A DNA stretch of 34,856 nt. Origin: a virus. Shown piece by piece: positions 9,489 through 14,396 of the stretch. The stretch is from the UHGV virus genome UHGV-0299912, one strand, 5' to 3'. Under the pieces are notes generated by a model, which was given only the letters and a program-made list of their open reading frames with translations, did no database searches and was not told where the DNA came from. The number at the start of each line of letters is the position of its first letter. Position 1 is the first letter of the stretch. Position numbers and translations under genes: made by a program.

Positions 9489-9705
9489 CACCTGGTACGT
9501 CGACCACCACGGCACTCCCTGCAAAATCCTGCGTTCTACCCACAACAAAGTTCACTACATCCGAAAAGGCAGAACATGTATCGCCAGCATGTTCCGCTTT
9601 AATCATGACTTTGAACCTGTGAGTAAAGTGGAATCAGAGCGGATAGCCGAAGAGATCGATACAGCAGAACACATTAAGAAGTTACGTGCCATACGCAGGA
9701 AATAG
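9466..9705 (+). CDS. Hypothetical protein
   Basis: 79-aa ORF overlapping the previous gene in the same operon; basic C-terminus; no recognisable similarity. Confidence 0.45.
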   Translation: MFRVIYPNTWYVDHHGTPCKILRSTHNKVHYIRKGRTCIASMFRFNHDFEPVSKVESERIAEEIDTAEHIKKLRAIRRK

Positions 9706-9844: not shown

Positions 9845-10081
9845 ATGTCTCGACTAATCACTTTACAGGACTGGGCTAAAGAAGAATTTGGGGACTTAGC
9901 ACCAAGTGAGCGAGTTCTGAAAAAATACGCGCAAGGGAAAATGATGGCCCCACCCGCTATAAAAGTTGGTCGCTACTGGATGATTGACCGAAATTCCCGT
10001 TTTGTAGGAACGCTTGCAGAACCGCAACTCCCAATAAACGCAAACCCAAAACTCCAACGGATAATCGCTGATGGCTGCTAG
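9845..10081 (+). CDS. xis: Excisionase
   Basis: 78-aa ORF immediately upstream of and overlapping int; strong AAGAGGAGG Shine-Dalgarno; sequence recognised as an E. coli prophage excisionase type. Confidence 0.8.
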   Translation: MSRLITLQDWAKEEFGDLAPSERVLKKYAQGKMMAPPAIKVGRYWMIDRNSRFVGTLAEPQLPINANPKLQRIIADGC

Positions 10082-11213
10082 ACCCCGATCTCACAAAATC
10101 TCTATACCCAATTTATATTGCAAATTAGATAAGCGAACCGGAAAGGTATATTGGCAATACAAACATCCACTATCCGGTCGTTTTCATAGCTTAGGAACTG
10201 ATGAGAATGAAGCAAAACAAGTTGCTACTGAAGCAAATACCATTATTGCTGAACAACGTACCCGACAAATATTAAGCGTCAATGAGCGTCTGGAAAGAAT
10301 GAAAGGCAGGCGCTCAGACATTACGGTGACAGAATGGCTTGATAAATATATTTCTATCCAGGAGGACAGGCTGCAACATAATGAACTAAGACCCAACTCC
10401 TATCGGCAAAAAGGCAAACCCATTCGTCTTTTCCGTGAGCATTGTGGAATGCAACACCTCAAGGATATTACCGCACTTGATATTGCCGAAATGATTGATG
10501 CTGTAAAGGCTGAAGGTCATAACAGGATGGCGCAAGTCGTGAGAATGGTGTTAATCGACGTCTTCAAAGAAGCACAACACGCAGGACATGTTCCGCCAGG
10601 ATTTAACCCAGCGCAGGCAACAAAACAACCGCGAAATCGAGTAAACCGCCAAAGATTATCACTGCCCGAATGGCAGGCAATATTTGACAGCGTAAGCAGA
10701 CGGCAGCCCTATTTAAAATGCGGGATGCTACTTGCTCTTGTCACTGGACAACGTTTAGGCGATATCTGCAATTTGAAATTCTCTGATATCTGGGACGACA
10801 TGTTGCACATTACTCAGGAAAAAACCGGTTCAAAACTTGCTATTCCGCTTAACCTGAAATGCGATGCTCTGAATATTACCCTTCGTGAAGTTATATCTCA
10901 GTGCAGGGATGCTGTTGTTAGTAAATATCTGGTCCATTACCGTCACACAACCTCTCAAGCAAACAGAGGAGACCAGGTTTCTGCGAATACTCTGACAACG
11001 GCTTTTAAAAAGGCCAGGGAAAAATGTGGCATAAAATGGGAGCAAGGAACTGCGCCCACATTTCATGAGCAGCGATCTCTGTCAGAACGGTTATATCGGG
11101 AACAGGGTCTGGATACGCAAAAGTTGTTAGGCCATAAATCCAGAAAAATGACCGACCGATACAATGATGATCGTGGTAAAGACTGGATTATCGTAGATAT
11201 CAAAACAGCATAG
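10071..11213 (+). CDS. int: Tyrosine site-specific integrase
   Basis: 380-aa ORF with a tyrosine-recombinase C-terminal catalytic region (R...HxxR...Y context: LGHKSRKMTDRY). Adjacent to xis and the icd 3' fragment. Confidence 0.93.
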   Translation: MAARPRSHKISIPNLYCKLDKRTGKVYWQYKHPLSGRFHSLGTDENEAKQVATEANTIIAEQRTRQILSVNERLERMKGRRSDITVTEWLDKYISIQEDRLQHNELRPNSYRQKGKPIRLFREHCGMQHLKDITALDIAEMIDAVKAEGHNRMAQVVRMVLIDVFKEAQHAGHVPPGFNPAQATKQPRNRVNRQRLSLPEWQAIFDSVSRRQPYLKCGMLLALVTGQRLGDICNLKFSDIWDDMLHITQEKTGSKLAIPLNLKCDALNITLREVISQCRDAVVSKYLVHYRHTTSQANRGDQVSANTLTTAFKKAREKCGIKWEQGTAPTFHEQRSLSERLYREQGLDTQKLLGHKSRKMTDRYNDDRGKDWIIVDIKTA

Positions 11214-11260: not shown

Positions 11261-11280
11261 ATTTTACATCATCATAAAAC

Positions 11281-11303
11281 AACGGGCGTGTTATACGCCC
11301 GTT
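11281..11303. terminator. Bidirectional hairpin terminator between int and the icd fragment
   Basis: Perfect 9-bp stem AACGGGCGT / ACGCCCGTT with loop GTTAT. T-rich 3' flank on the plus strand (TTAAATATTT) and TTTT on the minus strand. Confidence 0.6.
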
Positions 11304-11326
11304 TAAATATTTAACACATGTAGTGA

Positions 11327-11494
11327 TTACATATTCTTGATGATCGCATCACCAAACTCTGAACATTTCAGCAGTTTAGCGCCTTCCATCAGACGTTCGA
11401 AGTCATAGGTTACGGTCTTGGCATTGATTGCGCCTTCCATACCTTTAACAATCAGGTCTGCGGCTTCGGTCCAACCCATGTGGCGCAGCAGCAT
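11327..11494 (-). pseudogene. icd: 3'-terminal fragment of isocitrate dehydrogenase gene icd (phage-borne att homology, e14 type)
   Basis: Minus-strand translation ...[55 protein letters not shown] is the Icd C-terminus as I recall it. Homology stops at ~11494, where the sitC sequence begins; there is no icd 5' region. Confidence 0.85.
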
Positions 11495-11496
11495 AT

Positions 11497-12180
11497 ATGC
11501 TGGGGCTTCCGTTTTCTCTGGGAGCCTTCTTTTCCGGCGGACTGGCTGCGGGCAGCATGCTGTTTCTTAACCAACGCACCCGCTTAAAAGAAGATGCCAT
11601 CATCGGCCTGATCTTCTCGTCCTTTTTTGGCCTGGGGCTGTTTATGGTGTCATTGAACCCGACATCTGTGAACATTCAGACCATCGTCCTGGGCAATATT
11701 CTGGCAATCGATCCGGCGGATATCCTGCAACTCACTATCATTGGCATTCTCTCGATCATCGTGCTTTTTTTCAAATGGAAAGATCTTATGGTGACCTTTT
11801 TCGACGAGAATCACGCCCGTGCTATTGGATTGCATCCGGGCAGATTAAAACTCCTCTTCTTCACCCTGCTGTCGGTTTCGACCGTTGCGGCGCTGCAAAC
11901 GGTTGGTGCCTTTCTGGTGATCTGTCTGGTGGTGACTCCCGGAGCAACAGCATGGTTGTTAACCGATCGTTTTCCCCGCCTGCTCATGATTGCTGTAACT
12001 ATTGGCAGTGTAACCAGTTTCCTCGGCGCGTGGGTCAGTTACTTTCTGGACGGCGCGACAGGTGGAATCATCGTGGTGGCGCAGACACTGCTGTTTCTTT
12101 TAGCATTTGTCTTTGCGCCCACCCATGGGCTTTTGGCAAATCGTCGGCGTGCGCATAAGGCGCTGGAGGATCGCTCATGA
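11497..12180 (+). pseudogene. sitC: 5'-truncated sitC (Mn/Fe ABC transporter permease)
   Basis: 227-aa frame matching the SitC/MntC/YfeC permease family from about residue 60 onward. The N-terminal ~60 codons, sitA and sitB are absent. Overlaps the sitD start (ATGA). Confidence 0.85.
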
Positions 12181-13034
12181 TGGCATTATTACTGGAGCCA
12201 CTGCAGTTCACCTTTATGAGTCACGCACTGCTGATTTCACTGGTAGTTTCCATACCCTGTGCGCTGCTGTCGGTCTTTCTGGTCCTGAAAGGCTGGGCAC
12301 TGATGGGTGACGCGATGAGTCATGCGGTTTTTCCTGGCATCGTGCTTGCCTGGATTCTGGGGTTACCTTTGGCTACAGGGGCATTCGTCGCCGGAGTATT
12401 CTGCGCGGTGGCGACGGGATACCTGAAAGACAACAGCCGAATCAAGCAAGATACAGTGATGGGGATTGTTTTTTCTGGCATGTTTGCCGCAGGTCTGATT
12501 TTGTATATTGCAGTCAAACCAGACGTACATCTTGACCATATTCTTTTCGGCGACATGCTCGGGATAACCATCGGCGATATAATCCAGACGGTGATTATTG
12601 CTGGGCTGGTTACACTTGTTATTAGCGTAAAATGGCGAGATTTTTTGCTGTTCAGCTTTGATTATCAACAGGCGCAGGTAAGCGGTTTGCATACGAGATG
12701 GCTGCATTATGGGCTGCTGTGCATGGTCTCTCTGACCATTGTGGCGACGCTGAAAGCGGTAGGTATTATTCTCTCCATTTCTCTGCTCATTGCGCCTGGC
12801 GCCATTGCGGTACTCCTGACACAACGCTTTTATATTGCGCTCCTACTGGCGACTGGCATATCGGTAATAGTGTCAATGATCGGTGTCTGGCTGTCCTTTT
12901 TTATCGACAGCGCACCAGCTCCGACGATTGTCGTCTTATTCGCGGTCGCGTTCATCATGACGTTTACCGTTACCAGCATCAACGCACGCACAAAGGGAAA
13001 CGCCCATACACAGGATCTGTTATCACCCAATTAG
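12177..13034 (+). CDS. sitD: SitD (Mn/Fe ABC transporter permease)
   Basis: 285-aa polytopic membrane protein of the ABC-3 permease family, immediately downstream of sitC. Confidence 0.88.
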   Translation: MMALLLEPLQFTFMSHALLISLVVSIPCALLSVFLVLKGWALMGDAMSHAVFPGIVLAWILGLPLATGAFVAGVFCAVATGYLKDNSRIKQDTVMGIVFSGMFAAGLILYIAVKPDVHLDHILFGDMLGITIGDIIQTVIIAGLVTLVISVKWRDFLLFSFDYQQAQVSGLHTRWLHYGLLCMVSLTIVATLKAVGIILSISLLIAPGAIAVLLTQRFYIALLLATGISVIVSMIGVWLSFFIDSAPAPTIVVLFAVAFIMTFTVTSINARTKGNAHTQDLLSPN

Positions 13035-13696
13035 CACAACATCCGAGGACATCATCGTCCGCCAGCCTACAGCAGTCCGGAAAGTCATGGAAGGTCGTTG
13101 GGAGGAGGTACGAATTCTATCATGCAAAAAATACGTAAAATCGATAATAGCTGGAAATAATTCAATACATGCACTCTCGAAAGTGCATCAGCCAACCGTG
13201 GCACGTTTTTGCATACAACGAGCCACGGTTCTCTTTACGATTTATAGCTGTATTGGTGAACTATGAGCAATTTTCGCGTTATATTCCAATCTTTAATCTC
13301 TTAACGGAACAAGTTGCATGCATGACTATATCAAGACAACTTATAACTACCAAAACATTTGCTTTGCAAGCAAAAACGGGGACCATTAACTCTAAGAAAA
13401 ATCCGATCTATTGTTAGGATTATTAAAGTTACTTAACAGTATTCCGAAATGAAAATACAAAGTAAGCTGATTGTCTTATTAAACATTATCATTGCATTTA
13501 TACTATTTGAGCTTTTAGATCAAAAATTCGGTTTGAGTACATTATTTTAAAGCAAGATAAATAATATCGGGCACTCTAGTTTTTATAATTAACAATTAAA
13601 CGCCCATAAAATGTTATTTACGTTTCTTCGCTATTGTAATATCTTAATATAGTGGTTTACGCCACTCTACTTTCATCATATTTTGTACGTTTATGT

Positions 13697-13725
13697 AATC
13701 GCCATGAAACTCTTTCATGGCGATT
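13697..13725. other. Perfect 13-bp stem, 3-nt loop hairpin (AATCGCCATGAAA-CTC-TTTCATGGCGATT) in the AT-rich spacer
   Basis: Seen directly; the plus-strand 3' flank is T-rich (TCTTATTCTT). Possible terminator or regulatory structure. Confidence 0.4.
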
Positions 13726-13814
13726 TCTTATTCTTAATCCAAGAACATAGTCCCTATCTATAGCAAAATTACTTTTGAACAAAAGAATAACGTATTTAGG
13801 TAATCATTACGAAT

Positions 13815-14396
13815 TTACCCTATAGGTGCTACTGGCCACTCAATATCCGGTACTACTGATGTATCAACACGGTTCAGCAACACCCGATACTTTTTCCAGG
13901 CTTCCAGCAACAAGGTTTCTTCCTCCGTTGCGATCTCCAGATCTACAGCATCCTGAAGCGGCGCTATATGCTCACTGGCTACCTGCATCAGGCTGTTTTT
14001 TGTTTCTTCCGCCTCCCGGATCCGGAACAGTTTTTCTGCTTCCGTATCCTTCACCCAGGCTGTACCGTTCCACTTCTGAAACTCCCCTTCCGGGGATAAC
14101 CAGGTGACATTTTCCGGTAATGAGCCGAGTTCAGAAATAAATAACGCGTCGCCGGAAGCCACGTCATAGACCGTTTTTCCCCGATGGTCTTCAACGAGAT
14201 GCCACGATGCCTCATCACTGTTGAAAACAGCCACAAAGCCAGCCGGAATATCTGGCGGTGCAATATCGGTACTGTTTGCAGGCAGACCTGTATGAGGCGG
14301 AATATATGCGTCACCTTCACCAATAAATTCATTAGTTCCGGCCAGCAGGTTATAAATTTTTATGGTCCGTGCTTGTTCACTCATTCTGAATGCCAT
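13815..14396 (-). CDS. tfa: Tail fiber assembly protein
   Basis: 193-aa ORF directly downstream of stf, with TAATG stop/start overlap; recognised as the lambda/Rac Tfa family. Confidence 0.85.

Follow-up and report, generated by a model that had tools for sequence, protein, structure and literature searches.

A YncL-related membrane peptide predicted in the accessory slot of a lambda-like Escherichia coli phage

Comparison of homologous loci shows that a 33-codon open reading frame (ORF) in an AT-rich spacer of the phage genome UHGV-0299912 evolves as protein-coding sequence, and that its product, as predicted, is a single-helix peptide distantly homologous to YncL. The pattern of substitution indicates that this ORF (13449-13550) is a genuine but unannotated gene, whose product is a tiny membrane protein. 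We regard it as reasonably likely, though well short of certain, that the block around it (13271-13814) is a self-contained moron with a promoter-like site, a leader, the YncL-related membrane-peptide ORF and a terminator, which would be expressed in the lysogen and would partly depolarise the cell. Positions are those of the window, by which we mean the whole stretch of 34,856 nucleotides that was analysed.

Genome setting and the two parts of the spacer

The genome in the window is that of a lambda-like E. coli phage, in vegetative gene order. Early genes, excisionase and integrase on the plus strand lead to a fragment of icd and to the sit genes, which border the spacer; beyond the tail fibre assembly gene on its other side, the side tail fibre gene, lom, J and the remaining tail and head genes follow on the minus strand. 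The features referred to below are these:

10071-11213, plus strand: excisionase and integrase
11276-11497: 222-nt 3' fragment of icd, marking an e14-type attachment site
up to 13034, plus strand: truncated sitC, then intact sitD, whose stop at 13034 is the left edge of the spacer
about 13083-13271, plus strand: non-coding 3' module of roughly 140-190 bp, with copies elsewhere
13169-13188, plus strand: hairpin with a 7-bp stem, at chance level
13194-13245, plus strand: conserved hairpin with a 9+4 bp stem and a 9-nt loop, TTGCATACA, and a T-rich tail, TTCTCTTTACGATTT
13264-13272, plus strand: ykgJ-like remnant, first three codons ATGAGCAAT, placed by alignment with K-12 at the ykgJ start ATG
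13271-13814, plus strand: AT-rich 545-bp block (the right block), a putative moron, delimited by similarity searches and unannotated in RefSeq
13386-13414, plus strand: sigma-70 promoter-like site TTAACT-17-TATTGT, at a conserved position
13449-13550, plus strand: predicted gene of 33 codons (the small gene) for a YncL-like single-helix membrane protein, product MKIQSKLIVLLNIIIAFILFELLDQKFGLSTLF
13652-13696, plus strand: conserved distal 3' UTR, with a small hairpin, GTGGYTTAYGCCAC, and then an A/U-rich stretch
13697-13736, plus strand: predicted intrinsic terminator of the small gene, with a 13-bp stem in the window and a T-run after it
13815-14396, minus strand: tail fibre assembly gene, which converges on the small gene and bounds the slot on the right

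The spacer (13035-13814) has a G+C content of 34.0%; that of the whole window is 53.0%. The first-pass annotation had called it the most AT-rich stretch present, and this is borne out: among 780-nt segments, the lowest G+C (33.1%) belongs to those starting at 13081-13121, and the next lowest elsewhere is 41.8%, near 9571. In strain SCU-111 the gap from sitD to the tail fibre assembly gene is identical to the spacer, and RefSeq genomes carry no annotated feature within the spacer or the right block. The three hairpins and the 33-codon ORF picked out in the first pass were all found again where it had placed them. Its statement that the spacer has no long ORF stands only in part, since an 82-codon ORF (13169-13417) and a 59-codon ORF (13087-13266) exist; neither is upheld as a gene. 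The 82-codon ORF crosses a mosaic junction at 13271 and is broken by indels in a divergent lineage, the segment of the 59-codon ORF has pN/pS of about 0.6-1 in all frames, with stops in the copies from K-12 and the ydfJ context, and Pfam and NCBIfam searches with the two ORFs gave no match.

Similarity searches divide the spacer at about 13271 and reveal it as a mosaic. The gap between the tail fibre genes and att had been described as a hotspot for accessory loci, which agrees with the different cargo found there in lambda, K-12 and the window: the slot holds ea47 in lambda, ykgJ in the K-12 remnant, and the right block together with an AraC-family gene in phage ev099. The order in K-12 is left module, ykgJ and a remnant of the tail fibre assembly gene, and the left module of the window ends in ATGAGCAAT, cut at the junction with the right block. 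Judged from these alignments, ykgJ fills in K-12 the slot that the right block holds in the window.

Lambda has a copy of the left module between ea31 and ea47 (82% identity), and nearly all E. coli genomes have one between ecpE and ykgJ (83%); others lie immediately 3' of dinI in Stx phages (77%) and downstream of sitD in other sit loci. The module is always downstream of a gene on the same strand in the copies compared, and none of its frames has coding-type conservation. Its main structural element is the hairpin at 13194-13230, with a 9-bp stem (AACCGTGGC/GCCACGGTT) that is extended, after an A.A mismatch, by four more pairs, leaving the 9-nt loop. This hairpin forms in every copy of the module despite differing stem sequences, the loop is nearly constant, and two base pairs are altered on both sides among the copies. 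For this comparison the copies were folded singly, as register shifts between them blur a count of pairs at fixed columns. A T-rich tail follows the hairpin in the window, in K-12 and in one sit copy. Our reading of the left module is that it supplies a 3' end and a terminator, in the window to the sit genes; the hairpin and tail at 13194-13245 are a probable intrinsic terminator of the upstream sit operon, and the covarying hairpin would most likely end transcription of those genes.

A weak Rfam match to CssrB on the minus strand (13197-13294; score 34 bits, gathering score 76, the alignment lacking 101 model positions) was rejected as a CssrB gene, because the hairpin alone is common to both. 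The smaller hairpin at 13169-13188 is of a kind expected about 0.5 times by chance in our own calculation, and only the inner three of its seven pairs are invariant in homologous copies, the outer pairs being broken. The first-pass annotation had listed both hairpins together with the ORF; both lie left of the junction at 13271 and belong to a separate module.

Coding conservation and kinship with YncL

The right block always adjoins the stop of the tail fibre assembly gene. It is present in 831 of 5426 complete E. coli genomes (about 15%), at three prophage contexts (bio/ybhB, ydfJ, and icd with sit), and in the temperate phages ev099, mEp332 and PhiR70_1. A tblastn search of plasmids gave no match, and a scan with one genome per species gave no confirmed locus. 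The branch of the YncL family to which the ORF belongs appears, on this distribution, to be confined to E. coli and its phages.

We compared 44 copies of the block, representing 31 distinct sequences from genomes, phages and viral contigs. The ATG, the 33 codons and the stop are intact in all 44 loci, which encode four protein variants in all. In the divergent lineage, 76% identical overall, the ORF keeps its exact length, with indels in both flanks and none inside it. Between the window and this lineage, Nei-Gojobori counting finds 13 changes at 19.7 synonymous sites and 7 at 79.3 non-synonymous sites (pS 0.66, pN 0.088; dN/dS 0.059; Fisher p 5.5e-7), with synonymous change near saturation. 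Variable columns number 8, 2 and 13 at the first, second and third codon positions, and the other five frames across the ORF contain stops. When 20 substitutions were simulated with the spectrum of the flanks, six or fewer amino-acid changes arose in 5 of 20,000 runs (0.025%), while 42% of the simulated sequences remained open by chance. The homologues form about three close lineages from E. coli and its phages, so this test of conservation leans mainly on the one divergent lineage. The first-pass annotation had made conservation of the reading frame a check on its ORF, and the frame is indeed conserved, both in its integrity at 44 of 44 loci and in a dN/dS of 0.06. Gene callers record the ORF almost solely on short contigs: the majority variant on nine of less than 2 kb, the window's variant on one of 4.9 kb.

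The product was described in the first pass as a short basic N-terminus followed by one predicted transmembrane helix, and this holds for its 33 residues, of which residues 7-23 have a mean Kyte-Doolittle hydropathy of 2.94. A Shine-Dalgarno motif is absent upstream of the ORF (AACAGTATTCCGAAATG), also as first noted. The proposal of a candidate small membrane peptide is supported by the conserved frame, the predicted single helix and the match to YncL.

The NCBIfam model NF000537 (YncL) gives this match, with E values of 7.5e-5 and 3.7e-5 and an alignment that spans positions 1-28 of the 30 in the profile. The scores of 22.5 and 23.5 bits are under the curated equivalog cut-off of 35, and because of this we treat the ORF as a homologue or paralogue of YncL, not as an equivalog. 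For the Pfam YncL family, PF28073, there is a precomputed weak match on the majority variant (eight metagenome contigs) and on one frameshifted variant; the window's own variant (D24) has no Pfam match on record. K-12 YncL (MNVSSRTVVLINFFAAVGLFTLISMRFGWFI) is 35% identical to the ORF product, and the positions invariant with respect to it among four aligned sequences are M1, S5, L10, N12, A16, L19, F20, L22, F27 and G28. In parts of the helix the YncL proteins of Enterobacter and Leclercia are nearer to the ORF product. Its YncL-type features are a length of about 30 residues, one helix, S5, N12 and a [KR]FG motif.

This relationship is further supported by our own YncL profile, built from four YncL sequences and tested on three ORF variants. 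The variants score 20.3-24.0 bits, against a maximum of 14.4 over 60,000 composition-preserving shuffles (3 x 20,000), and among 1949 six-frame segments the ORF is the sole non-YncL match. The likeness to YncL is significant and exceeds what hydrophobic composition gives.

Wider searches returned little else. Against 1.84 billion representative proteins, phmmer with the ORF product as query recovered only that product and a single frameshifted copy of it, a search of 5.8 billion proteins found copies of the ORF alone, and queries made of concatenated variants or doubled YncL found only frameshifted or extended copies of the ORF and YncL proteins. No phage copy was returned by tblastn with K-12 YncL against phages. 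In PHROGs there is one non-significant match, to a family of unknown function (E 0.59). A full-text search for the peptide strings yielded no matching paper in the library covered, so the small gene is apparently undescribed. To our knowledge, the YncL family is otherwise known solely as a chromosomal enterobacterial stress gene.

Transcription signals and readings of the small gene

The promoter-like site at 13386-13414 is the only one found at the same position in the majority and divergent lineages, and it stands out as conserved within a segment of 69% identity. Almost all other copies read TTGACT-17-TATTGT or TATCGT, the latter in the divergent lineage; the window has the weaker -35 element TTAACT (13386-13391). 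The number of promoter-like sites is no higher than expected from shuffles. Transcription would start near 13420, which would leave the small gene a short leader of about 27 nt.

Downstream, the hairpin at 13697-13725 has a perfect 13-bp stem and a 3-nt loop and is followed by TCTTATTCTT. Stems of this kind are expected about 2.5e-4 times by chance in 780 nt (our own calculation from base composition), and the hairpin is the sole terminator-like site in the region. The stem has 10-11 bp in other copies. Of the 44 sampled copies, 43 have the core CGCCATGAAR/TTTCATGGCG and one has CTCCATGAAA instead. Terminator prediction on the window and on a single representative of every other lineage gave a terminator-like hairpin at a matching position, and all 44 copies contain the hairpin sequence. 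The minus strand lacks a T-run after the stem, so the terminator should serve the plus strand alone.

With a conserved promoter-like site and a strong terminator, the small gene looks like a moron. As reportedly defined by Hendrix and colleagues, a moron is an additional gene of atypical composition that is set between conserved phage genes and brings a promoter and a terminator of its own. Examples are lom and bor of lambda and gp15 of HK97.

What such a gene might do is suggested by YncL. Cells that overproduce YncL are sublethally depolarised, their nucleoids condense, their viability falls and they become sensitive to pore-forming peptides; the protein is induced by stress, namely heat shock and minimal medium (PMC12542507). 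YncL is also among the candidate substrates of the RseP protease (PMC10470546). By analogy, we infer a YncL-like function for the small gene, in which production of the peptide would cause sublethal membrane depolarisation. The gene would be transcribed from its own promoter in the lysogen, and the peptide would insert into the inner membrane and, like overproduced YncL, partly dissipate the membrane potential. Such depolarisation might push the cell towards a low-metabolism, stress-protected state and might hinder a superinfecting phage. Late transcription is antiterminated in lambda, and during lytic growth such transcription would pass from the tail fibre assembly gene into the small gene in the antisense direction. 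A fuller scenario combines these steps into a phage-captured, diverged YncL that would lower the membrane potential of the lysogen as a mild, toxin-like 'metabolic silencer', giving stress tolerance or a block to superinfection, possibly with a small RNA (sRNA) from the 3' UTR and an antisense shut-off in the lytic phase. We consider this combination speculative and rather unlikely.

A role in superinfection exclusion or phage defence proper, in which a membrane protein made by the prophage blocks DNA entry or aborts infection, would suit the location of the gene. Viable temperate phages carry it in the accessory slot that separates the tail fibre genes from att, and in this part of lambda-like genomes accessory genes such as HK97 gp15 and phi80 Cor act in superinfection exclusion or defence. 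The product is a predicted membrane protein, and with its own promoter-like site and terminator the gene could be expressed in a lysogen. Neither PADLOC nor PHROGs provides a match for such a role, however, and the sole homologue is a chromosomal stress protein without a known anti-phage role, which makes defence an unlikely main function.

The first-pass annotation had proposed a type I toxin of the Hok/Ldr/Zor kind, that is, a membrane toxin held in check by an antisense or partly complementary sRNA and by folding of its own mRNA, as in hok/sok, ldr/rdl and zorO/orzO. Several traits fit this proposal: the peptide is small and hydrophobic with a basic N-terminus (a generic trait, common to many non-toxin small proteins), the ORF has no Shine-Dalgarno motif, the long 3' UTR has a strongly conserved distal part, and overproduction of the homologous YncL brings membrane depolarisation and reduced viability. 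In addition, the majority lineage has a weak promoter-like site on the minus strand, ATGACA-18-TAACAT, about 60-90 nt 3' of the stop codon, from which an RNA would be antisense to the ORF, and the minimum-energy fold of the window pairs the start-codon region with 13680-13696.

The proposal is nevertheless not supported, and YncL is the sole family matched. Pfam, NCBIfam and PADLOC contain no Hok, Ldr, TisB, Ibs, ShoB or other toxin family that matches the ORF; in the Pfam copy searched, which lacked the PF28073 model, the window and divergent variants matched no family with E up to 1, nor did the majority variant with E up to 10. The Rfam covariance scan that had been suggested in the first pass found none of the modelled antitoxin RNA families, with nothing at E up to 1 of the Sok, Rdl, Sib, OhsC, IstR or OrzO type. 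Neither in the window nor in the divergent lineage is the minus-strand promoter-like site called, and no such site is common to the lineages. A hok-like fold-back was also rejected, as its pairing partners differ between lineages and occlusion of the initiation region does not exceed that with shuffled 3' UTRs: the mean unpaired probability there is 0.44-0.49, not below the shuffled controls, 22-80% of which are at or below the real value. In consensus folding the long-range helix has one compensatory pair against four broken pairs, and no repeat complementary to the leader occurs nearby. We likewise think a type I toxin-antitoxin system unlikely.

The same transcript could have RNA as its main product, the distal 3' UTR (13652-13736) being released as a regulatory sRNA and the ORF being secondary or the transcript dual in function. 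Segment 13652-13735 is 94% identical between lineages, against about 65% in adjoining segments, with 13 variable columns among its 84 positions in the 31 distinct sequences. The predicted transcript folds more stably than 100 of 100 shuffles (z -3.3), and the layout may be compared with that of known sRNAs from 3' UTRs. On the other side, no Rfam family matches; the stems are invariant, and for this reason lend no covariation support; and the codon-level signal places the ORF itself under selection. Recent exchange could also explain the high identity, as block copy A20 carries the right end of the divergent lineage, a recombination within the block, so that selection and recombination are not separable in the last 84 nt of the 3' UTR. 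An RNA as the main product is highly unlikely on this evidence.

Finally, the idea that the frame is a chance opening in AT-rich non-coding DNA, conserved by recent common ancestry, draws on the missing Shine-Dalgarno motif, the absence of RefSeq annotation in any genome, gene calls almost solely on short contigs (nine under 2 kb and one of 4.9 kb) and the 42% of simulations that stay open, and is very improbable given a dN/dS of 0.059 with synonymous change near saturation (pS 0.66), so few amino-acid changes in only 0.025% of simulations, indels in the flanks and none in the ORF, and a significant similarity to YncL for which composition does not account.

Significance and comparison with known systems

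The reading of the block as a moron that encodes a YncL-related peptide adds a mobile, phage-borne branch to the YncL family. This branch is new, while the family itself was already known, and the small gene reveals no new kind of system. Small membrane proteins are routinely missed by annotation, and this ORF is unannotated in RefSeq although roughly 15% of complete E. coli genomes and three cultured temperate phages carry its block. The locus offers a natural system for probing YncL-type peptides, since lysogens and isogenic cured strains are in principle available. It is also a worked case in which resemblance to type I toxins can be told apart from family membership.

Hok/Gef, Ldr, ZorO and TisB are likewise small, hydrophobic, single-helix peptides, and an excess of the ORF product would, by inference from YncL, probably lower the membrane potential as they do. 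Unlike them, the small gene matches none of their families, shows no detectable antitoxin RNA and lacks both a long structured leader and a supported occluding fold-back.

YncL of K-12 (b4598) is a stress-induced inner-membrane protein of 31 residues, similar in length to the 33-residue ORF product. The two share a short N-terminus, S5 followed by a basic residue 6, one helix with a central Asn12, and [KR]-F-G directly after the helix. They differ in the C-terminal extension LSTLF of the ORF product and in its acidic or basic residue 21 within the helix. Their genes differ more: yncL is a chromosomal core gene, in the order patD-yncL-ortT in K-12, and has the Shine-Dalgarno motif AAGGTGG, whereas the small gene adjoins a prophage tail fibre assembly gene, occurs in about 15% of E. 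coli genomes, lacks such a motif and has a 3' UTR of 185 nt.

In comparison with classical morons, the product of the small gene is far smaller, and its expression in the lysogen is presumed. It shares with them an intrinsic terminator and its own promoter-like site, recognised from sequence alone, flanking one gene; a G+C content of 34% against 53%; and a slot that is filled differently in related phages.

The shared 3′ module and its hairpin

The b region of lambda, the ecpE-ykgJ gap, Stx phages and sit islands have in common a non-coding stretch of about 140 nt, which we call the 3′ module. Nearly all E. coli carry it in the ecpE-ykgJ gap, and in Stx phages it lies after dinI. The copies compared here are the following.

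Copies of the 3′ module
Window 13083-13271 (+): module copy
L005 2501-2638: module copy, lambda
L007 1501-1640: module copy, K-12 (ecpE-yagU region)
L059 701-845: module copy, Stx2 phage

The stem sequences of the module hairpin vary among copies, and its 9-nt loop, TTGCATACA, is nearly invariant. Ordinary terminators seldom keep their loop sequence in this way; the conservation hints at a specific recognition element.

The sit segment and the sit-linked allele

Upstream of the module, the window carries an icd fragment fused to a partial sit operon.

Features upstream of the module
Window 11276-11497: icd 3′ fragment, directly after the integrase gene, with 98% identity to the icd pseudogene of strain SCU-111
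Window 11491-13034: sit segment, with the icd 3′ fragment joined to the middle of sitC

About 2.8 kb present in SCU-111, with sitA, sitB and the 5′ portion of sitC, is absent from the window, whose sit transporter therefore looks defunct. The genes of the window stand in phage (attP) order, not in prophage order.

The 545-bp block that follows the module (13271-13814) has a promoter-like site. Among 44 sampled copies, its -35 element (window 13386-13391) reads TTAACT in place of TTGACT solely in the window, together with SCU-111; judging from this substitution, the sit-linked allele may be expressed more weakly. In the YncL-like peptide encoded by the block, Asp24 replaces Ala24 in four distinct block sequences, including that of the window.

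Tail fibre assembly sequences around the block and in K-12

Phage ev099 and the ydfJ and bio contexts have an extra small hypothetical gene of 55-65 codons, located some 70-270 bp upstream of the block (2527-2724 in L010, L011, L012 and L013; 4765-4932 in L058). Where the block lies in the contexts L010, L012 and L006, its left edge adjoins a short fragment of a tail fibre assembly gene, a hint that it was either inserted into a gene of this kind or duplicated along with one.

In the ecpE-yagU region of K-12 (L007 1501-2203), ykgJ is flanked by the 3′ module upstream and a tail fibre assembly gene remnant downstream, suggesting that ykgJ is old prophage cargo remaining in the chromosome. This remnant, between ykgJ and yagU, is matched by Rfam IS009 (RF02111; L007 2004-2203), and the same family matches the window at 13855-14053 (-) with 221 bits, wholly within the tail fibre assembly CDS. 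From these two placements, the IS009 "RNA family" seems to represent conserved coding sequence of prophages and not a small RNA.
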